Below, piece by piece: positions 3 to 14,169 of a DNA stretch of 14,169 bases. The stretch is from contig JAZDHP010000030.1 of NCBI GenBank assembly GCA_043805855.1, positions 1 through 14,169 of the forward strand. Reading direction: 5' to 3'. The notes beneath the pieces were generated by a model, which saw only the letters and a list, made by a program, of their open reading frames with translations, was not told the origin of the DNA and did not search any database. Position 1 is the stretch's first letter. Each line of letters starts with the position of its first letter. The position numbers were made by a program, and so were the translations under genes. The DNA comes from Candidatus Micrarchaeota archaeon. Lineage in GTDB: Archaea > Micrarchaeota > Micrarchaeia > Norongarragalinales > UBA8480.

Positions 3-3000
3 AGTTTTACCAGTCCATAAATCTCCACCTAAGTGGAACACAACTGGCTTTGTTTTAATGTCAACAAAAGCATTGTATGGAAACATTGCAAATGGACACG
101 GCTGTGTAGGCGTACACTGCTGGCGACGGCGGAACACTGTGTTATTTAACACGTTTAAAACTTGTGCTTTTGTCCATACCATAGAGTCAGGCTGGTTGTC
201 TACAACGACAATTTTAGTGTCACCATCTTTAACAGGAACAGGTACTGAAGAATCTGGTTTGTAAACTTTAAGCTGTGAATCCATTTCAACGTTAGTTGGC
301 ACACCGTACAAATCTGTTGGTAGCGATTCGTGCGTTACAATTGGCTTGACTGTTTGCGCTGACAAGATTATTGGATTGTCATTTAACTGGTAGTAATTTT
401 CAGTTTCTTCGCTACTGCCTTGGAAAATCGCTACTCGCGAGTTACTCTCGCCTGAATACTGGCGATTGTTTATAATCGCGTGAATGTAAGTTGGCACGAG
501 GTTAAGTTTGTCAATGCCAGGTTCAGTCCAAACTTTTTCTTGCGCGACAACTGCACGGTAAGGTGAATTAAAACTATATAAAGCAACGCCATCTACGTTG
601 TTAGCTACTTGCTGAACATTGCCCGGCGCAAGGTAAAACTTTACGTTTAGCGGGATTTCAATTTGGGTATCAGTACCATACGACATTATAACTAGCGATG
701 CAGCTTCGTCTTTTGTTTTAACTGCGTTTGGGTTCTTTGCAAATAGTGAACATTTGCCTTGCTTTGAAGCGTCGTACTTTAACAACATTAAGTTATCCGC
801 GTAAGGCGTGTACTCTTCTGGCAATTGCAATACAGTCTTTGGATCTTCAACTACTTCAAAACAACCAGTCGGATCAATCAAACGGTAACTTCGCTCTTGG
901 CTTGGCGCTTTAGTGAAGTTAAACTGTAACAACAGTGCATCTGCTGGCAAGAAGGAATCAGCGTAAAAGTCAATTGCTTCAACTGGAGTCGTTGTAGCTC
1001 CATTTCGTAGTGATAGTTCAAGAACAGGCTTTGCTGCGGCTGTATGTTCTGGTATATATGATAAAATGTAGTGGCTTGGCAGTGGAGCTAGTGATACTTC
1101 AGTTTGGGGTAAGCCAACTAAGTTTACTGTGGTTTCCATTTGTTCGCCGCCGTAACTTAGTGCAATTGGATACTCTGGATCTGCTAACTTTGTTGGCCTT
1201 GTTCGTACCTTTCCGCTAACTTCGTAGTTTGTCTTTGAAGTCATTGAATATTTATTTTCAGTATTTTTAACATTGTACGCGGTTAGTTGAGAATCTCTAA
1301 AGCGTTCAATTCCACCAAAGTCAAGATATGGACCTTCTTGGTCTTCAGTTCTCATTATTTGAATGAACGTTTTATCAGTTTGGAAAGTCAACTGTCTTCC
1401 ATTGTCAAGATCAGGATTAAAGTCAATAATTTTATAATTTAGCACAAACTCTATTGGAATCTCGCCAGTGTTTTCGTTGGACAAAATCGCTGGCTTTACA
1501 ATAAACCCTTCTGGCCCCGGGCTAGTGCGACTTTCTTGTTCAAAGCTAAGTTTGAGACAAGCTTGTTGACTGCATTGCACTAAAGTGTTTTCAAGAGGTA
1601 TAACTTTAAAAGTAGAAATGTTTACAGCTGCACCGCATTCACCAGCGCTGCGCGTTTGGCGCAGTTGCCCTAGCGTAGCGTCAGTTGGAGAACGAAGGTA
1701 CGTGTCGTTTGCTAAAATGTTGTAACCGCGGTAAGAGAGATTTAAACGATTTGGCGACGTTGATTTAGTTACCATAAAGGGTATAATCATTTTAAATGAA
1801 GTTCCAGATTCAGTGACGTTTTTCTCGGCGTTTATCCATTTGAAAACTCCAACTTCATTTGCCGCCACTTCACCGCCGCAGCTTGTTGACGAATATGAAT
1901 TGCCTCCTTTTAGCATAACTGGATTAAGTTCGCTTGGATCCATGTAGTTTATTGAATCGCGTTCGTTCAATGGAAAGCCTTTGAAAATAAACGCGTTGTC
2001 GTTTGATAAACCGGATGAATCACTTCCCATACGAAGGTAAACCCCAGCTGCAATTGCGTCGGGATGAACGTTTACAATTGTGAAAACAGCGCGGTAAATT
2101 TCACCTGCTTTTAGAACAGTTAAGTCAGTTGCGTCTGGCGGGTTTATTGGTACTTCAGTAGTTCCGTCTCGCATATAAACTTTGAACGTTCCATCTGGAA
2201 TGACTTGGCTGTTGGAAGTTGACGACATTTCAACTATAACTGGCTCGTTCATTATTCCAACGTCTGGAATAACGTGTTGAACTTTGTCAAAGTAACCTTC
2301 TGAACGCGCAGTTATAGTGTAAGGAATATTAGCTTTCAAACTAACTGGACAACGACCATCAAAGTAACTTTGGCCGTTTTCTAAATCTGGATTTGCCTGC
2401 GGGCAGCCAGTAACAATGACTGTTTGTCCGCGGTATTCATAAGAAACTGTGAATTCAGTTTGTTCAGTTATAGTATCATCTTCTTGCATTTCACCATTAA
2501 CTACAGTGTAGCCAATTGCTTTGAGCGAAAGGTAAGACTCCAAAGGCAATAGTTTAAGCGTTACGTTGTTATTTTCAGGCGAAACAGTTAAGTTTTCATC
2601 GCTGTCAAAAGCACCGTTTGAAAAGTTAACTGCATGGAATAACAATAATTGTAAAGGCATGTTTGCAAATTCTACAAAGCCTGAACGGGCGGCTAATGCT
2701 GGCGCTAAATAGTGGCCGTTTTCTAACTTTACAGTTACGTTTGCACCTGTTGGCTCATTGTAAAAGTCAACTACGTTCACCTTAACGTTAACTGAATTTT
2801 CAGGGGTTTTCTTGGTTAGGTTAACTGTAAATGAAGTGCTAGTTGAGTCTAGAGTTATTTCTGGAGTTGCAAGGCGCACGTGGCTAGCTGAGTAAATTGA
2901 AAAGTAAATTGTCGTTCCAATTTCAAGGTTTGGAATAACTTGAGTGCGAGTAGCGCGGGGAAGTTGCATTAATTGCTTTTGTTCTTCTTGGCCATCAACT

Positions 3001-4163
3001 TTGTAAATAGTAACGTCAGCTGAAATTGAACTTGTCCTGCTAACTGCATCAATCTCTGCTAAGTTGAGAGTTAAGTTAACTGAATTGTTTTCATTTGCTT
3101 TTATCATCCTAATTGTAAAAGTTAAGCCAGGAGCAACGATTTGCGAAGGAGATACTTGTGAAATATAGCCATCTTCAGTTGCATCTACAGCTACGTAAAT
3201 TGTACTTGCGTGTGCAATGTCTGAAAACGTCGCGGTACCGTTTACATTTGTAACATTACTATCTACAACACTATTACCAGAATCTAAAAGGGTAACTGCT
3301 GCGCCTGAAAGCTGTGCGCCGGTTTCGTTAACAACGTTTACAGTTACCAACGCTTCGCCGGCTAGATTTCCCCTTGCGCCGGTTACGTTTGCGCGGTCAT
3401 GCGGGCTAGGTGCGCCGTTAGCTGAATCGCCTAAATCTATATCAAATGAACCGCGAGTAACAGTTAGCTTAACTGTGTGCGTTGCAGCTGCAGTGAAAGT
3501 TTCAGTCTTGGAAGAGTAACCTTGTGCAGTTACAACCGCGCGCACTGATGAACCAAGCGGCGCGTTTAACTGTGCGATTCCGTTTTCATCAGTTCTAGCT
3601 GTTCTAGTTTGTTGACTAACCGTATAAGAAACGCTTGCGCTTTCAATTGGCTCGTCGTCAGAAGTTGTAACTAGTAAATTAACTGCGCCAGCCATGCTTG
3701 TAGTTGCAGTTCGTAGAATAAACGGCGCAACTGGACTTCCAACTATAAAGCTACGAATTTGAACTGCATAGCCTTCTTTTGAAATTGAAACGCTTAAACG
3801 TTTACCTTCTTGCAATCCAGAAAACGAAGCTACTCCATTATCGTCAGTTGTCATAGATGTGTTTAGATCAACGCCAGTTAGGGTTACAAGTGCTCCGGCA
3901 ATTGCTTCGCCGCTTGAAGTTTGCACTTTTAGTTCAACGTTACTAGAAGCTAAACCGAGGTTGGCAAGTATAGCTGGATTAGTAAAGAGAAAAGCGCCGC
4001 CAATAATTAATAGTAAAACAACTGTGAACAACGGCAAAGTGGGAATTCCCTTTGCTTCAATTGCACTTACAAGCGGTTTCAAGTTAAGCCCGTTTTTAGA
4101 GAGCCACTCAATTGCACCGTAGTATTTATCTTCAACAGAATAGTAGATTTCTTTTAATCCCAA
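3..4163 (-). CDS. Giant membrane-anchored surface protein with carboxypeptidase-regulatory-like/prealbumin-type beta-sandwich repeats (3' end beyond the left edge; at least 1387 aa)
   Basis: Manual translation. TTG at 4163 has a GGGGTTGAGG RBS-like tract upstream and an in-frame TGA at 4170-4172. N-terminus MGLKEIYYSVEDKYYGAIEWLSKNG...GIPTLPLFTVVLLLIIGGAFLF (TM helix). Repeats follow: GEAIAGALVTL..TTDDNGVASF..SKEGY, DEPIESASVSY..RTDENGIAQL..AQGY, GAQLSGAAVTL..TNVNGTATF..EDGY. The frame stays open to the edge (...FHLGGDLWTGKT). Many N-x-S/T sequons. Confidence 0.9.
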   Translation of the reverse strand, partial: MGLKEIYYSVEDKYYGAIEWLSKNGLNLKPLVSAIEAKGIPTLPLFTVVLLLIIGGAFLFTNPAILANLGLASSNVELKVQTSSGEAIAGALVTLTGVDLNTSMTTDDNGVASFSGLQEGKRLSVSISKEGYAVQIRSFIVGSPVAPFILRTATTSMAGAVNLLVTTSDDEPIESASVSYTVSQQTRTARTDENGIAQLNAPLGSSVRAVVTAQGYSSKTETFTAAATHTVKLTVTRGSFDIDLGDSANGAPSPHDRANVTGARGNLAGEALVTVNVVNETGAQLSGAAVTLLDSGNSVVDSNVTNVNGTATFSDIAHASTIYVAVDATEDGYISQVSPSQIVAPGLTFTIRMIKANENNSVNLTLNLAEIDAVSRTSSISADVTIYKVDGQEEQKQLMQLPRATRTQVIPNLEIGTTIYFSIYSASHVRLATPEITLDSTSTSFTVNLTKKTPENSVNVKVNVVDFYNEPTGANVTVKLENGHYLAPALAARSGFVEFANMPLQLLLFHAVNFSNGAFDSDENLTVSPENNNVTLKLLPLESYLSLKAIGYTVVNGEMQEDDTITEQTEFTVSYEYRGQTVIVTGCPQANPDLENGQSYFDGRCPVSLKANIPYTITARSEGYFDKVQHVIPDVGIMNEPVIVEMSSTSNSQVIPDGTFKVYMRDGTTEVPINPPDATDLTVLKAGEIYRAVFTIVNVHPDAIAAGVYLRMGSDSSGLSNDNAFIFKGFPLNERDSINYMDPSELNPVMLKGGNSYSSTSCGGEVAANEVGVFKWINAEKNVTESGTSFKMIIPFMVTKSTSPNRLNLSYRGYNILANDTYLRSPTDATLGQLRQTRSAGECGAAVNISTFKVIPLENTLVQCSQQACLKLSFEQESRTSPGPEGFIVKPAILSNENTGEIPIEFVLNYKIIDFNPDLDNGRQLTFQTDKTFIQIMRTEDQEGPYLDFGGIERFRDSQLTAYNVKNTENKYSMTSKTNYEVSGKVRTRPTKLADPEYPIALSYGGEQMETTVNLVGLPQTEVSLAPLPSHYILSYIPEHTAAAKPVLELSLRNGATTTPVEAIDFYADSFLPADALLLQFNFTKAPSQERSYRLIDPTGCFEVVEDPKTVLQLPEEYTPYADNLMLLKYDASKQGKCSLFAKNPNAVKTKDEAASLVIMSYGTDTQIEIPLNVKFYLAPGNVQQVANNVDGVALYSFNSPYRAVVAQEKVWTEPGIDKLNLVPTYIHAIINNRQYSGESNSRVAIFQGSSEETENYYQLNDNPIILSAQTVKPIVTHESLPTDLYGVPTNVEMDSQLKVYKPDSSVPVPVKDGDTKIVVVDNQPDSMVWTKAQVLNVLNNTVFRRRQQCTPTQPCPFAMFPYNAFVDIKTKPVVFHLGGDLWTGKT

Positions 4164-6018: not shown

Positions 6019-6492
6019 ATGAATGCGAAAACAATAGCTATTGCAATAATAATTGTTGCAGCACTTGGTGCAATACTATTTTTAATAGACAGCGGAAGCG
6101 AAATAAAAAAAGCAACGCTGGATACGCATGACTTTGGCACGCCTGCAGTAATACCTTTACTAGCAATACAAGAGGTTAGATGCCAAACTAACTGTAACCG
6201 CACTGAACTAATTGGCTGTAACGAAACAATTGTAGCAACACGAAAATGTACTAGTCAGTTTGCGCCAAATGAAGAAATTAAAGATACCTGTGTTTCATTT
6301 GTTGATAGTTATTCAGAATACGAAGAAATCACGCGAAATTCTAACGAATTACTATTAGGCTTTGATAAGCAAATAATCACTTTGAATGTTTCAATGCCAA
6401 GTTTAACCGGCGTTAAAGAAAAAACAACTGAAATGTTAGATAAACTTGGACTTTGTACCAAAGCAATAGCTAAACTTCGCAATTACAAATAG
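6019..6492 (+). CDS. Hypothetical secreted/membrane-anchored protein (157 aa, 6 Cys)
   Basis: GAGGG RBS upstream, 18 nt after the argS stop. N-terminal hydrophobic segment IAIAIIIVAALGAILFLI. Six Cys and sequons NRT, NET, NVS. No family recognised. Confidence 0.8.
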   Translation: MNAKTIAIAIIIVAALGAILFLIDSGSEIKKATLDTHDFGTPAVIPLLAIQEVRCQTNCNRTELIGCNETIVATRKCTSQFAPNEEIKDTCVSFVDSYSEYEEITRNSNELLLGFDKQIITLNVSMPSLTGVKEKTTEMLDKLGLCTKAIAKLRNYK

Positions 6493-7802: not shown

Positions 7803-8354
7803 TCATAAAACTGGTTTTTCACCCAATAAGCAAACTGAATTACTAATTACTTCATTATAAAACGCATTGTTCTTCTTTTTAACGTCGTGCCATTCGGCGA
7901 CGTTAAATATCTTTAAGTTAACCTCACGCCCGAGCTTCGCGGCTAATTCACCACTTGAAATTTTTGTGCTTGAAGTAATTAACAGAAGGTCATAGTCGCT
8001 ATTTTTATCGTCTTCGCCTTTAGCTGCACTGCCAAAAAGCAAAAAACAATTTAGACCCGCGCTTTTTTTCTCCACTTTTTCAATAACTTTAGAAGAAAAA
8101 ATCTTAGAAAGCGTATACGCAATTTTGTTAGCCTTGAATAATGGAGTTAAATTTGCTTTGAAATAAACTCCATTACTACGCTTACTTCTCACTAACATCT
8201 TTTCACTAGCCAAAAAGTTCAAAGCGCGCAATACGCTTGACGCGCTCATTTTCAATGCTCGCGCCAACTCGCGCAAGTATACTTCTTGATAAGGATTTTC
8301 AAAGAAAAAGCTAAGCACTTTAAACTCGTTCCAATTCTGGTACAAGTGTTTCAC
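7803..8354 (-). CDS. Winged-HTH + minimal nucleotidyltransferase (MNT/MntA-like antitoxin)
   Basis: N-terminal wHTH (VYLRELARALKMSASSVLRAL). C-terminal Pol-beta-type motif LFGS-AAKGEDDKNS-DYD matches GS-x10-DxD exactly. C-terminus FYNEVISNSVCLLG is typical of MNTs. Confidence 0.9.
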   Translation of the reverse strand: MKHLYQNWNEFKVLSFFFENPYQEVYLRELARALKMSASSVLRALNFLASEKMLVRSKRSNGVYFKANLTPLFKANKIAYTLSKIFSSKVIEKVEKKSAGLNCFLLFGSAAKGEDDKNSDYDLLLITSSTKISSGELAAKLGREVNLKIFNVAEWHDVKKKNNAFYNEVISNSVCLLGEKPVL

Positions 8355-9351: not shown

Positions 9352-12300
9352 TTAGCGTATATCGCAGTAAACGTGGCACTTAGTTTCTTCTTTGTCTTTT
9401 AAGTAAATGTCTGTAAACGTAGTGAAGTATGTTGCTTCAGTGTCGACTTTTTCTTGTTTGTTTAAATTGCAATCTCCTTCAACGTGACCGCCAAAAGCGC
9501 CATTATCGCACGAATAGCCAGACATGCAAATTGCACGGTCTCCAACTACAGTTCTACCGACAACTGGATAATCTCCTTGTGAAATGTCAAAACTTGGCAT
9601 ATGGCGCCAGTCTCCAATTTGTCCGCTGCGTTTTGACACCCAGTCTATTTTACCCGAGGGAGTTAGCCCAAAAGTAGCTAAGTTTAAATCAACATCTTGT
9701 GACACTCGGCTTATACACGGTAGGTTATTATCCTCTGAGTCGGACGATCTGCCATTGCAATATATTGAATATTGAGTTGGAAAAGCTATTGGCGAGGGGT
9801 TAAACAACGGGCACTTATTTCGCGAAAATCCATATTGTGAAAGCGCCATGTCTCTCAGCAAAACGCCGCTTGGTGATTTTGGCGTGTTTTCTGCAGTTGG
9901 CTGTTCCGGAATATAATCGCGAAGTGAACGCACGCAGTAGCCTGGCGAGCGATCTGGTTCAGTTGCACTGTGTGGTATTGAAGTTGAAAATGTAAAGTAG
10001 CACATTTTCGTTCGGCGATCACCGTTACCAAGCCAACATGAATTTGAATTATCTGAAATTTGTATAAAGCTCTTGGAAATTTCTAAAGGTTGTGCGTTTA
10101 CCTTCCATTTCCATAAACCGCTAGCGCTATCAAGATAATAGGTAAACGTGACAACGTAGTACCCGCGGTCCCAAGTTTTACTGTACTCACACCCACCTTT
10201 GGCTTCGGTTATCTTAAAATGATCTTGCGATAATTCATAACTAAGATGAAGCCCGTATTGATTTTCAAGAACTGACTTCCAATTTAGATTAACAAAACAG
10301 GGGCCACTATAGTCTTCAACACTAGCGATACTATCCGTACACTGAAATTCATTTATAAGGTTAAACACGCGAGTGTACTTGAATTCTTTTACAGGCGTAT
10401 CACTATCACCTATGAAGTATTTGAACGGCGCATCGGTAGTGAATTCATTTTCTCGAGGAGTGAATAATGGAACTGAAACTAATTCAGTTGTATTAACCCA
10501 CCTTTGCGTCGAGCGGCCTGGAACTTCAACTTGCTTTATTTTAGTTTGTGCGTTGCATGCTGGAGTTGGATCACAAACTGGAGAGCGACAGGCGTTGAAA
10601 CAAGGCGTTCCATCTGCATTTTGGCCAGTTGCAGCGTCGCAAGTTGAATCACAAGTAACTCCGTTTTGGCATGGAACGCACGTTTCAGTTCTTGTTGTTG
10701 TGCTTGGCACGGTTTTCATCCAGTCGTTTAAAGTTGGTCTGCAATTTCCAGAGTCAAACGTAAACGGCCCAGTTTCTTGACACCAGTAACTACTTTGGCC
10801 ACTTCGTCTAAACGCAGTTGTTCGCCGTAGTTCATCTGCGTCTCGAATATAAGACAATATTGGCCGCGAGTACCAGCTCGTTCCGTCAAACAAAGCGTCA
10901 GGCTGTACGCCAACGTCGGTTTCAGAAACTACCAAATTACTATCAAGTATTTCCAATTGCATTACGTGGCTTTGTTTAGCAAGTGCAAAAGCTTGGCCAG
11001 GTACATCAGTAAACCCAATTTTATACGTTTGACCATCATTTTGAACTGTTTTAAACCCTAACCTAGTTTCACTATTTGAACGCGAATGTAATTGCAAGTT
11101 ATCAATGACAACTAACAACGACGGGTCAAGCGGATACGTGACACCGTTTGCGCTGTAAGTATCTTGAAGCTTTTTAATTTGCAAGTTGTTTGAACTTACC
11201 GAAGCGGAATTGTGCACTGTTACATTCACTGTAATTTTGTCACTGGCCATTGTGCAGACTAAATTAAGCGAAGCGTTTGTCACGAAAACTTGATTCCCAA
11301 CAACCCCGCCACACTTAGCCGCGTTGAATTTCAACAAGTAAGCCTCATGGTTTTCTTTATAGGGAACAAGAGAAGAATCAGTTTGTTTTTCAAAAGTAAA
11401 ACAATCGCTACGGCCAGCTGGAGTCCAATCCTTTTGTCCTAGTTCATCTATTTTATCCCAATCTGATCTTCCGTCAACCGCGCAGTCTGTTGGCCCAGTT
11501 GCGTTTGAAATGTAAACTGGCACAGCGTCAGCTGGGAAAATTGGATCTACAAAAAGGGAAATTTCCTTGCATCCAATCCAACCACTTTTTCCACCTGAGC
11601 GTAGACGAGTGTCAAAAGAATAGTTGTAAAACGCTTGGTCGCCACAAGGAGTTCCAGAAAGTAAACTCTGCGAAACAATCTCGCGAACTGGATTTACACT
11701 AACTGGAATTGACTTTTCTAAAGTGAAATCGCCAAGTGTTTCGTTTACAAAATTACCAGTTGCCTTCACGGTTATTTCACTACGCTCGCTAGCTCCCCGG
11801 CCGCTTAGGTTAACTTTTACTTCAACTTCGTCCTTTCCATCGCTTCCAAAGTAACTTGCTGGCAAATCTTTTTCAAAAACCCCGCCAACAGGCGCAGGGT
11901 CAATTGTAAATTCTTGTCCTCCAACTTTAAACGCAACTCCAGTGATTGTGAAATACTCCGGGTTTGAAGTGAACTTCACTTTTGCACTGCGAATAGGATC
12001 ATTTAGTTCAAGTTTTGCACTTACTTCTAGCGGTTTTGCAAATTCACTGTCAACTGAAAATCCATTACAATCAAAAGTTGAAAACTTATCCGCGGTATTT
12101 ACTTCGCTTAACACGCCACACGCTTCTGGCTTGTTAATTGTTTCCAGTTCACTTAAAACGCGATCTTGCCTGAAATTTATACCAAGTGAGCCTTGGTCAG
12201 TGCGCTGTTCGTTTGGCGATTCAACGTTATAAAAACTAGAAAGGGTATTGCCATCGCATTCTTTATCATACTTGAGTTCGTTTATTGGAAGGTTTTGGTC

Positions 12301-14169
12301 AAACGGGTTGCGTATAAAGTCGCTTCCGCGTTTAATGAAAGACTTGTAAGCTAGAGTTAAATTTTCATAAGCATCTTGAGATCGTTCCGGCGCTTCTGGC
12401 ACAAAGTAAAACGCGTAACTTTGGCTAAATGCATTTGCAGAGTCGCGCTGGATTGACATTAGCAAACGCTTCCACGAATCTCCAGTTAAATCATTTCCAC
12501 ATCCGCCGCCTGAAGTTGAAGTAGAGCTGCGCACTGTTAAGCCAACTGGCGCATTCACAGCAAGCGGCTTGGGAGAAAAGTCAAACAACGTTGGTTTGCT
12601 TGTTGTATTTGCTGGCGTGAAGAATAAATGTGATTGCTGTGCGTTGACGAAAAATCCAGAAAGCGAAGCAATGTAAACGTGATTTTCTTTCAACACGCCG
12701 TTAACTGGAATTTGTTGGAATGTAACGTTGTCAAAAACGCCGTTTATAACAACACGCGAATCTTGCACTGCACTAATTGGCATCATAGACGCGTTTACTT
12801 CAGTTGCGCTATTCTCTTCAAACACATTGCGCTGTTCGTCGCCAATTGTTCCAAATGAAAACACATAGTCAAAATATAGGTTGCTTGAAAAGTTGACAAA
12901 ATACCAACCGCGAGTTTTCACGGAAACGTTGCACGGCACCGCGCACGTTTGAGAAGAAACGCCGTTGCGCGTTACGTTTACCGTTATTCCAGTTGCGGGT
13001 TGGTTTGTAATTACGTCAAGTGCAGTTAACACAAATTTTGCAAAGCGGATTTCCCACTGTAATATAGTTTCAATTTGTGCTTCGCTAAGCGTAACTTGTT
13101 TTCTGGCAGTTAAATCTCCTGAACTTGCACGGATTTCCACAACTGCATTGCGCTGCAAGTTGGAAAAAACTTGCTGGGAACTCTTCGTTGTCTTTTGTTC
13201 AATTATTCTACCGTCGCTAGTGTAAAGCGTTGCAATACCATCTAAATTATTATTGTACTCGTCGACAAAACGGGCAGTTAAAACTGAAGTGTTTTCCTCT
13301 GCAGCTGGCGCGAGTAAAATTGGAAAAACTTTGACTGGCGAAAACAATTGAGATACGTTTGTAAGAAAACCAGATTTGCGCGAAGTTACGTAGTATTGCT
13401 TGTCAATTGTAAGCGAAATTGTAACGTTTCCACTTGACGGTGAAGTGCCGTTTGTCATTTCAACATTCTGGCTGTCAAAAACTTGAAACGCTACGCCGGT
13501 TACTTTTTGCTGCGAAAGTTGTGAAATGAAAGAAAGCGTCACGTTGGCAGATGGAACTTTAACAGCTTCAATTACAATTTCTTGCAAGTCAGGCGTAACA
13601 GCTAAATCGCTAGTTTTGTTAGAAGAATAGCCGACAATGTTCGCGGCAAAGTAAACGTGTTGGTTCATCACTAGATTTTCAAACAACGCCACTCCATTTA
13701 CAGAATTTCCATCACGCATTTTTGAATTTGTTTCAACATCGTATAAACTAATTGTTCCATTGAGCATAACGCCCGTATCTTTTTCTTGAATTTTAACTTG
13801 AAAAGAACCACGCTGTTCAGCTTCCCCGGCTAAATTTACTCGGCCTCTAAGTGTACCTAAATTATTAGTTCCACGTGGAGAAGATAAAGTGCCAGTGTGG
13901 TTAATTGGCTGTGTTGGCTGCGTTCCTGCCACCGAACGGAGAGAAATTACTAAGCTACTTCCAATTGCCCGCGTTGTTGTTTCAAAACCTTCTTTAGCTA
14001 TTTTCACCTGCAACGCGCGCCCTTTGTCACTAAAGGAAACTTCGCCAGTTGCGTTTGTCAATTGCATTGCAACTTCTTCATTGCTAGCTGCAATTAACTG
14101 CACTGACGCGCCTTCAACAGGAGCACCACTACTAACAACTTTAACGTAAACGCTTTGCGCTGGAGAAAA
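9352..14169 (-). CDS. Giant surface protein with carboxypeptidase-regulatory-like repeats and Cys-rich C-terminus (5' end beyond the right edge; at least 1605 aa)
   Basis: The ORF-track frame is open to the window edge (FSPAQSVYVKVVSSGAPVEGASVQL...), so GTG 14103 is internal. Repeats include GAPVEGASV..TNATGEVSF..AKEGF, VNGVALF..IVGY and SSGNVTI..RKSGF. About 23 N-x-S/T sequons counted. Cys-rich distal third. Stop TAA at 9352-9354. Confidence 0.92.
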   Translation of the reverse strand, partial: FSPAQSVYVKVVSSGAPVEGASVQLIAASNEEVAMQLTNATGEVSFSDKGRALQVKIAKEGFETTTRAIGSSLVISLRSVAGTQPTQPINHTGTLSSPRGTNNLGTLRGRVNLAGEAEQRGSFQVKIQEKDTGVMLNGTISLYDVETNSKMRDGNSVNGVALFENLVMNQHVYFAANIVGYSSNKTSDLAVTPDLQEIVIEAVKVPSANVTLSFISQLSQQKVTGVAFQVFDSQNVEMTNGTSPSSGNVTISLTIDKQYYVTSRKSGFLTNVSQLFSPVKVFPILLAPAAEENTSVLTARFVDEYNNNLDGIATLYTSDGRIIEQKTTKSSQQVFSNLQRNAVVEIRASSGDLTARKQVTLSEAQIETILQWEIRFAKFVLTALDVITNQPATGITVNVTRNGVSSQTCAVPCNVSVKTRGWYFVNFSSNLYFDYVFSFGTIGDEQRNVFEENSATEVNASMMPISAVQDSRVVINGVFDNVTFQQIPVNGVLKENHVYIASLSGFFVNAQQSHLFFTPANTTSKPTLFDFSPKPLAVNAPVGLTVRSSTSTSGGGCGNDLTGDSWKRLLMSIQRDSANAFSQSYAFYFVPEAPERSQDAYENLTLAYKSFIKRGSDFIRNPFDQNLPINELKYDKECDGNTLSSFYNVESPNEQRTDQGSLGINFRQDRVLSELETINKPEACGVLSEVNTADKFSTFDCNGFSVDSEFAKPLEVSAKLELNDPIRSAKVKFTSNPEYFTITGVAFKVGGQEFTIDPAPVGGVFEKDLPASYFGSDGKDEVEVKVNLSGRGASERSEITVKATGNFVNETLGDFTLEKSIPVSVNPVREIVSQSLLSGTPCGDQAFYNYSFDTRLRSGGKSGWIGCKEISLFVDPIFPADAVPVYISNATGPTDCAVDGRSDWDKIDELGQKDWTPAGRSDCFTFEKQTDSSLVPYKENHEAYLLKFNAAKCGGVVGNQVFVTNASLNLVCTMASDKITVNVTVHNSASVSSNNLQIKKLQDTYSANGVTYPLDPSLLVVIDNLQLHSRSNSETRLGFKTVQNDGQTYKIGFTDVPGQAFALAKQSHVMQLEILDSNLVVSETDVGVQPDALFDGTSWYSRPILSYIRDADELRRTTAFRRSGQSSYWCQETGPFTFDSGNCRPTLNDWMKTVPSTTTRTETCVPCQNGVTCDSTCDAATGQNADGTPCFNACRSPVCDPTPACNAQTKIKQVEVPGRSTQRWVNTTELVSVPLFTPRENEFTTDAPFKYFIGDSDTPVKEFKYTRVFNLINEFQCTDSIASVEDYSGPCFVNLNWKSVLENQYGLHLSYELSQDHFKITEAKGGCEYSKTWDRGYYVVTFTYYLDSASGLWKWKVNAQPLEISKSFIQISDNSNSCWLGNGDRRTKMCYFTFSTSIPHSATEPDRSPGYCVRSLRDYIPEQPTAENTPKSPSGVLLRDMALSQYGFSRNKCPLFNPSPIAFPTQYSIYCNGRSSDSEDNNLPCISRVSQDVDLNLATFGLTPSGKIDWVSKRSGQIGDWRHMPSFDISQGDYPVVGRTVVGDRAICMSGYSCDNGAFGGHVEGDCNLNKQEKVDTEATYFTTFTDIYLKDKEETKCHVYCDIR

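Follow-up and report, generated by a model that had tools for sequence, protein, structure and literature searches.

The contig JAZDHP010000030.1 of the Candidatus Micrarchaeota archaeon assembly GCA_043805855.1 (1.03 Mb in 67 contigs, 92% complete) was analysed over its entire length of 14,169 nucleotides, which is called the window (or contig C30) in what follows. It carries two giant open reading frames (ORFs), both on the minus strand and one at each end. The protein on the right, P0001, contains a block of 42 residues with eight cysteines, placed between two predicted strands of similar length. The question raised by this locus is what such a block does, and whether it resembles, as an original prediction made from the sequence had it, the stalk and knob of the ultralong third complementarity-determining region of the bovine antibody heavy chain (CDR H3), as a candidate hypervariable recognition module at a fixed site. 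We find that the outgoing strand has one length in every relative examined within the order, that the cysteine block differs between lineages and between paralogs, and that in the lineage of the window this block is conserved.

Anatomy and predicted structure of the module

All the segments read by the original prediction are present in the minus-strand translation of the window. The features concerned, in the order of translation, are as follows (aa, amino acids; pLDDT, predicted local distance difference test score).

9352..14169, minus strand: right giant gene, P0001, 1605 aa within the window, 5' end open
10804..10860, minus strand: helix ending in TAFRR, aa 1104-1122; AlphaFold2 helix at model residues 5-23, with a low pLDDT of 41-56
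10720..10782, minus strand: loop closed by cysteines, C1130-x12-C1143, then the first anchor CRPTLNDW (W1150); from the family alignment and the profile A6
10681..10719, minus strand: ascending stalk strand MKTVPSTTTRTET, aa 1151-1163, 13 residues; AlphaFold2 strands at model residues 52-55 and 58-64
10555..10680, minus strand: knob, aa 1164-1205, 42 aa with 8 Cys, from CVPC to PTPAC; pLDDT 73-85
10501..10554, minus strand: descending stalk strand NAQTKIKQVEVPGRSTQR, aa 1206-1223, 18 residues; AlphaFold2 strands at model residues 112-118 and 122-125
10465..10500, minus strand: second anchor W1224-V-N1226-T-T-E-L-V-S-V-P-L, with an invariant Trp, the sequon W-x-N-x-S/T and an AlphaFold2 strand (model residues 132-135) that re-enters the body
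10414..10431, minus strand: motif APFKYF, aa 1247-1252, the next conserved landmark past the stalk

The motif TAFRR is aa 1118-1122 (10804-10818). In an alignment of the nine-member family, A1119, R1121, R1122 and the following S1123 are invariant, and F1120 is replaced by L in two of the nine members; C1130, C1143 and the R, P, T and W of the first anchor are the same in all nine representatives. W1150 together with MKTVPSTTTRTET occupies 10681-10722. The return segment NAQTKIKQVEVPGRSTQRW ends at 10498, with W1224 at 10498-10500, and the sequence PLFTPRENEF begins at aa 1234. The conserved residues G1218 and R1219 lie at a kink that faces the proline of the ascending strand.

The cysteines of the knob are spaced C-x2-C-x5-C-x3-C-x12-C-x3-C-x4-C-x5-C. 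P0001 has 36 Cys in its 1605 aa, and eight of them within any stretch of 42 aa were obtained in two of 5000 shuffles of the protein, so that the cluster is above the expectation from composition. N-glycosylation sequons are not enriched in P0001 overall (23 observed, 18.0 +/- 3.7 in shuffles). The sequon N1226-T-T (10489-10497), directly after W1224, is invariant in the family and is retained in the majority of the distant relatives.

Two AlphaFold2 models were obtained. That of the C-terminal 606 residues, based on 9 sequences, has a mean pLDDT of 40; the module is its best-scored part and appears with two strands of 14 residues, aa 1150-1163 and 1211-1224. The model of the 161-residue module (11 sequences) has a mean pLDDT of 65.9, with 71-85 over model residues 41-130, and a predicted template modelling score (pTM) of 0.33. 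Strands at aa 1151-1154 and 1157-1163, on one side of the Cys block, are matched on the other by strands at aa 1211-1217 and 1221-1224, and there is a further pair at aa 1127-1130 and 1231-1234 (model residues 28-31 and 132-135). The model residue numbers of the matched strands have a constant sum (176-177), and the strands are broken at proline on both sides. Such matched lengths, constant sums and proline breaks are as expected of one kinked antiparallel ribbon, and we infer the pairing of the strands from the DSSP strings and these lengths. The stalk-and-knob geometry of the original prediction is in this way moderately supported: the predicted strands flank the Cys block at pLDDT 71-85, and the lengths of the flanks are fixed in relatives (see below).

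No known domain was recognized in this part of the protein. Neither the knob nor the 126-aa module has a Pfam match at E<=1, which covers EGF, knottin, granulin, zinc ribbon and other Cys-rich mini-domains, and at the same threshold there is no immunoglobulin (Ig) or V-set match in aa 1118-1605. A Foldseek search gave nothing significant: bovine ultralong antibodies account for seven of the 22 weak rows, rank 1 among them (E 1.3, template modelling score 0.10), and several others are Parkin; these rows are not used as evidence. A comparison with 48,161 chains gave no compact fold match. Comparison with PDB by phmmer was likewise without significant result, five of the eight listed rows being nanobodies and a single-chain variable fragment (E 0.02-0.87), and the protein atlas gave no usable match. 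All Pfam matches of P0001 are N-terminal, to beta-sandwich domains of the bMG3, CarboxypepD_reg and SpaA-like types. The bMG3 match reaches 36.0 bits (cut-off 34.9) and the CarboxypepD_reg match 24.8 bits, under its cut-off of 32.3; both concern the N-terminal repeats only and not the module. No match to NCBIfam was found for P0001. Judged from its sequence, the C-terminal head is large and Cys-rich and belongs to no known family of Pfam or NCBIfam.

Conservation in the lineage and variation in the order

The close family of P0001 is small. Among 1.84 billion representatives, a full HMMER search recovered no more than 9 related clusters, and a word-index search recovered 3. A metagenome scan with the single module protein gave 98 pattern matches, none of which was confirmed. 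A scan with the alignment A1 gave three metagenome loci and three genome loci, among them one new module sequence (L019) and one locus without the anchor pattern (L017).

Within this family the module is strongly conserved. The eight knob cysteines, C1130, C1143, D1174, G1187, N1192, R1219, W1224, N1226 and L1230 are invariant in all nine representatives, and the knob is 41-45 residues long in each of them. For conservation, the 42-aa knob window ranks fourth among 565 in the C-terminal 606 residues; its positions other than cysteine are slightly above the mean of the region (0.58 vs 0.48). In one close pair (L003 and L019), the ratio of non-synonymous to synonymous substitution rates (dN/dS) is 0.096 for the knob, as against 0.199 for the part that precedes it and 0.101 for the part that follows. 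On this evidence the knob of the window's lineage is under purifying selection.

These observations bear on the idea that the knob is a hypervariable recognition loop, diversified within populations either by targeted mutagenesis, for example by a diversity-generating retroelement, or by rapid positive selection. In favour of this idea, the tip is rich in cysteine, would be exposed and occupies a fixed site, at which relatives differ strongly. The idea is contradicted by the Cys pattern, invariant in 9 of 9, by the knob length of 41-45 and by the dN/dS of 0.096 in the one close pair, as well as by the genome itself. No reverse transcriptase was found in this 92%-complete genome (PF00078/RVT_1, 0 matches; the control search found it in 3 of 14 known genomes). 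Nor is there a second copy or template repeat of the module DNA: when 10390-10872 was compared with the genome by blastn (word size 7), the matches other than the self match were all of at most 50 nt, with E>=0.13. We consider a hypervariable loop very improbable, and this part of the original prediction is not upheld. The prediction had itself taken a loop that is invariant across homologues as speaking against the idea, and this is what the nine-member family of the window displays.

The picture is different at the scale of the order. When the module protein was compared with 401 genomes of the phylum, weak matches came up in 10 further genomes of the window's order and were confined to the first half of the query. 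The ORFs of these relatives keep the anchor TAF[RWK]RS ... CRP[TS]-x-x-D-W and the return anchor W-x-N-x-S/T ... P[FY]K[YF]F, and the stretch between the two is much longer. The profile A6, which represents the anchor in 74 positions and recognizes that of the window with E 9.9e-26, matches 43 of 68 genomes of the order, including 19 of the 22 of high quality. In the 401-genome sample of the phylum it matches 32 genomes, all 32 of them in the order of the window and none in the other orders sampled. Every match lies in a long open frame (about 490 to 3,700 residues), and a genome has at most four matches. A fixed site in an archaeal surface scaffold, as had been proposed, is supported by this presence of the anchor in giant ORFs of 43 of the 68 genomes.

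The outgoing strand has a constant length. From the first Trp to the first knob Cys there are exactly 13 residues in all 21 sequences of a first table. The pattern C-x6-W-x13-C is found in 30 of 30 loci, these being the best 30 of 59 A6 matches (12 of these genes are already in the 21-sequence table), and the 13-residue spacing is also present in the five further paralogs that were fetched and looked at among the 29 weaker or partial matches. The return segment has 16-18 residues in the 21 sequences, with 22 in one; overall it has 16-19 in nearly all sequences and 21-22 in one lineage.

The Cys block between these strands is variable. Among the 21 sequences it has 41-45 aa with 8 Cys in ten, 104-106 aa with 12 Cys in two, 172 aa with 8 Cys in one, 210 aa with 22 Cys in one and 271-290 aa with 22 Cys (23 in one) in seven. 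In the 29 loci that could be measured (in the remaining one, L040, the sequence ended too early), its length is between 42 and 325 residues, with 8, 12, 14, 16, 20 or 22 Cys, and the count is even in 28 of the 29. The 42-aa knob of the window belongs to the smallest class observed. Differences of this kind are also found within single genomes. Three tandem paralogs on one contig of the genome G113 (C7:5784-20231; L051, L042 and L052) have blocks of 276 aa with 22 Cys, 150 with 16 and 100 with 12; the paralogs of G114 have 279 aa with 22 Cys and 175 with 18, and those of G056 have 172 aa with 8 Cys and 219 with 16. Four anchor matches were recorded in another genome, G198. In the loop before the anchor, the extra cysteines of relatives always come in pairs. 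No Pfam family was recognized in twelve ORF fragments with larger knobs, each of about 1,000 aa, the sole row being a spurious BRCA2 repeat (E 0.0094).

In terms of sequence, these proteins form an unnamed superfamily specific to the order and defined by TAF[RWK]R[SN] ... C[RKY][PGFHA]-x5-W, 13 residues, a Cys block, a return strand and W-x-N-x-S/T, and P0001 fits this definition. The term recognition module, used in the original prediction, agrees with the differences of the whole module between lineages and paralogs (42 to 325 aa); it does not hold in the sense of a hypervariable loop.

The cysteine counts also bear on the possibility that the eight cysteines of the knob bind a metal, as zinc or as an iron-sulfur cluster, in a metal-stabilized or redox-active mini-domain. 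The block does start with C-x2-C, several Parkin zinc-binding chains are present among the non-significant Foldseek rows (E 1.8-8.3), and phmmer touches GATA zinc fingers (E 0.3-0.8). None of the Parkin or GATA matches is significant, however; C-x2-C occurs as a single pair, with no conserved His, and no metal-binding family of Pfam matches at E<=1. The predicted topology places the block outside the cell, beside a conserved N-glycosylation sequon, and the variants nearly always have an even number of cysteines (8 to 22), as disulfide pairs would give. A metal site is therefore judged improbable.

A projecting tip or a structural brace

The start of P0001 lies on another contig. The right end of the window, 14029-14169, is identical to positions 1-141 of contig C1 (an overlap of 141 nt), and C1 adds about 71 N-terminal residues: a short leader with Lys residues and then one hydrophobic transmembrane (TM) helix. 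Since C1 provides the missing start, C30 and C1 can be read as adjacent contigs. The full protein, of about 1,680 residues, is probably a surface protein of this Micrarchaeota (DPANN) archaeon, with an N-terminal leader and one TM helix, the remainder being extracellular. The extracellular location of the module is likewise probable, because the TM helix is preceded by Lys, a conserved sequon stands at the base of the stalk, the Cys counts are even and the extra loop cysteines are paired. The outside topology and the even counts suggest that the knob probably has four disulfides.

We give somewhat better than even chances to the explanation that the fixed stalk carries a disulfide-rich projecting tip, which would be an exchangeable working end and would most likely bind a ligand on the surface of a host cell or partner. 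The leader and TM helix would anchor a chain that is otherwise outside the cell, where a run of prealbumin-like beta-sandwich repeats would be followed by the Cys-rich C-terminal head containing the module. The helix with TAFRR, the Cys-closed loop and the anchor CRPT-x-x-D-W would lead into the 13-residue outgoing strand; the 42-residue, 8-Cys block, probably with four disulfides, would be the tip; and a strand of 16-18 residues would return to the second Trp, followed by the N-glycosylation sequon. The two strands would pair as a ribbon of about 40-45 A that holds the knob off the body. A residue of an extended strand measures about 3.3 A in textbook geometry, and the estimate is for 13 residues.

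Because the ribbon is constant in length and the tip differs between tandem paralogs, we take the former for a socket and the latter for an exchangeable end. The socket would be fixed, with one length across the order, and the tip would be swapped for Cys-rich blocks of 42 to 325 residues. The window's lineage would have a minimal version of the tip, and this knob, being conserved and under purifying selection, would bind a conserved target, with no arms race. The knob probably has a function in binding or recognition and is a candidate point of contact with the host cell.

The main rival explanation is that the hairpin and its Cys block are a structural subdomain packed on the C-terminal head, where they would serve as a disulfide-stapled brace, the larger blocks being additional structural subdomains. 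The conservation of the knob (rank 4 of 565) and its purifying selection are in keeping with a brace, as are the base strands (model residues 28-31 and 132-135), which tie the hairpin into the body. An eightfold variation in size would be unexpected of a brace while both connecting strands keep one length, and so would different blocks in tandem paralogs of one genome; the model, moreover, is elongated (pTM 0.33), with no compact fold match in the chains searched. We hold a brace to be possible but doubtful, and the metal site and the hypervariable loop to be unlikely.

Several points weigh against the projecting tip. That the knob is so strongly conserved in its family is as compatible with a structural role as with one in binding. 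The count of 13 residues comes from the best 30 of the 59 matches to a profile that itself spans this spacing. The second Trp is absent in L032, L043 and L045, and the downstream anchors from which the knob length was taken are weak in L045, L046, L049 and L050 (E 0.0016-0.034). The module model has a pTM of 0.33, that of the whole C-terminal part is poor (mean pLDDT 40), and the alignments behind them are shallow, with 9-11 sequences. The pairing of the strands and the disulfides were deduced from DSSP strings, matched lengths, predicted topology and even Cys counts and not from the model coordinates, and the projection of the knob, as opposed to its packing on the head, is likewise a reading made apart from those coordinates.

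A more tentative extension of the projecting tip is that the module is a germline counterpart of the antibody stalk and knob, in which a rigid ribbon would be a universal socket into which disulfide-rich domains, unrelated to one another and 42 to 325 residues long, would have been fitted, and the one to four paralogs of each genome, with their different knobs, would set the hosts to which the cell can attach. We regard this as possible, though less likely than not.

The giant proteins of the genome and known counterparts

The left giant protein, P0002, had been treated in the original prediction as a paralog in which the module is missing at the same site.

3..4163, minus strand: left giant gene, P0002, 1387 aa, 3' end open

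P0002 has an N-terminal leader, a TM helix and CarboxypepD_reg repeats as in P0001 (76 bits in Pfam, cut-off 32.3). It has TVFRR at nt 126-140 and ends in ...NNTVFRRRQQCTPTQPCPFAMFPYNAF... at the edge of the window. The families of the two proteins are homologous over about 1000 N-terminal columns (hhalign probability 99.9%, E 3.6e-34, 923 columns), and their alignment ends near column 1016/1106. No homology is detectable between the C-terminal parts, where local hhalign gives a probability of 0.95% and E 0.058, though TAFRR falls on TAFRR; BLASTP did not align the TxFRR regions of P0001 and P0002. The anchor profile touches the left family solely over the helix and TAFRR, and weakly (six of six members, sequence E 0.08-0.29 in a six-sequence database). 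Neither P0002 nor its family has the CRPT..DW anchor, a stalk or a knob.

The sequences thus compared indicate that the two families share the scaffold and, probably, the TAFRR motif. The word paralog is justified by the N-terminal homology (99.9%) but does not extend to the C-terminal parts, which are not detectably homologous. In the absence of a significant C-terminal alignment by hhalign or BLASTP, the pairing of PFAMFPYNAF with PLFTPRENEF is not established. Nor is there support for an insertion in one paralog: the module is old, present across the order and missing from the left family, and the change may have gone in either direction.

Both families have other features of note in their C-terminal parts. 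In the relatives P0004 and P0005 of the right protein, about 190 extra residues with several Cys, which are lacking in P0001 and P0003, separate ...NGVTY from PLDPSLL. The site corresponds to aa 1008-1010 or so of P0001 (window about 11140-11148; alignment A1 columns about 1120-1300) and is a second large site of length variation in the head. Full-length relatives of the left protein (P0006, P0007, P0009 and P0010) run about 480 residues past the window edge. These residues include a conserved Cys-rich stretch of their own and a Gly/Ala-rich hydrophobic segment, and are unrelated to the C-terminal region of the right protein.

The genome has five giant genes with a common conserved N-terminal leader of about 45 residues and one TM helix. 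Two are those of the window (leaders at 3954-4163, minus strand, and at 14029-14169 with C1), and the others are on contigs C5, C57 and C50. Their frames as assembled have 1,387 to 2,790 aa. In four cases out of five the frame is cut by the end of a contig, so that the assembly seems to break at these genes. Among the five, P0001 alone has the module. Jointly they make up a notable fraction of the 1.03-Mb genome.

Between P0002 and P0001 the window carries genes for an arginyl-tRNA synthetase, a NUDIX protein, a peptidase S51, a helix-turn-helix nucleotidyltransferase and a class II aldolase (Pfam assignments). A 157-aa ORF after argS (6019-6492, plus strand) has no Pfam family. An ORF of 183 aa (7803-8354, minus strand) combines a winged-helix region with a nucleotidyltransferase domain of the Pol-beta type.

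The bovine ultralong CDR H3 consists of a stalk and a knob, as in the antibodies BOV-1 to BOV-7 (Dong et al. 2019, PMC6440498; see also PMC8602281 and PMC12371982). It is a loop of the immunoglobulin VH (heavy-chain variable) domain between frameworks 3 and 4, whereas the archaeal module lies in no immunoglobulin domain. The antibody has an antiparallel two-stranded stalk and a disulfide-bonded knob, to which the matched strands that AlphaFold2 predicts on both sides of the Cys block (pLDDT 71-85), and the putative disulfides of this block, may correspond. Bovine knobs are diversified somatically, in sequence and in Cys positions, between molecules; the archaeal knob is encoded in the germline and conserved, with a Cys pattern invariant in 9 of 9. 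What varies is the module as a whole, which is replaced from lineage to lineage and from paralog to paralog, with up to 325 residues, on a stalk fixed at 13 residues. The archaeal module is analogous, not homologous, to the bovine one.

Fibrillar adhesins and giant stalked surface proteins carry a binding domain at their tip, for example bacterial proteins of the MSCRAMM/SdrD type and pilins. The giant protein SPEARE of Nanohaloarchaeum antarcticus falls in the same class (see Hamm et al. 2019, PMC6642349). As in these proteins, a long run of beta-sandwich repeats (CarboxypepD_reg/SpaA/bMG3-like) lifts a distal head in P0001, several paralogs are present in a small genome, and a role in cell-cell contact is presumed for an obligate symbiont. 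Unlike them, P0001 is anchored by an N-terminal TM helix, its head has no known domain, and its variable element sits on a hairpin within the head rather than forming a terminal domain.

Other surface proteins with a localized variable recognition region are the targets of diversity-generating retroelements in DPANN archaea. The genome of P0001 differs in that no reverse transcriptase or template repeat was detected in it, and the region is conserved within the lineage.

The surface-layer (S-layer) protein SLP_Mh of Micrarchaeota is described as a glycosylated protein of 101 kDa with an N-terminal hydrophobic segment, S-layer domains and almost no sulfur-containing residues (Gfrerer et al. 2021, bioRxiv 10.1101/2021.04.28.441871). 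P0001 is similarly a predicted surface protein of this phylum, with an N-terminal hydrophobic segment and a conserved N-glycosylation sequon. An identity as an S-layer protein of the SLP_Mh type was rejected, given its 36 Cys and the lack of an S-layer family in Pfam or NCBIfam. In the literature library searched, no publication was found on a cysteine-rich surface protein module of DPANN archaea or on an archaeal knob like that of ultralong CDRs.

How DPANN archaea recognize and attach to their hosts is an open question, and we know of no specificity determinant in Micrarchaeota. The module offers a small and concrete target: its socket is readily found by profile, and its tip differs between lineages and between paralogs of one genome. 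If the knob is only a structural brace, the finding would be that of a new conserved domain in an uncharacterized family. If the projecting tip is correct, the module would be, from the viewpoint of protein engineering, a second, independent natural scaffold for stalk-and-knob display. A stalked surface protein that displays a variable tip in this manner, as sequence patterns and a model of moderate confidence suggest, would be of interest for the recognition of hosts by DPANN archaea.

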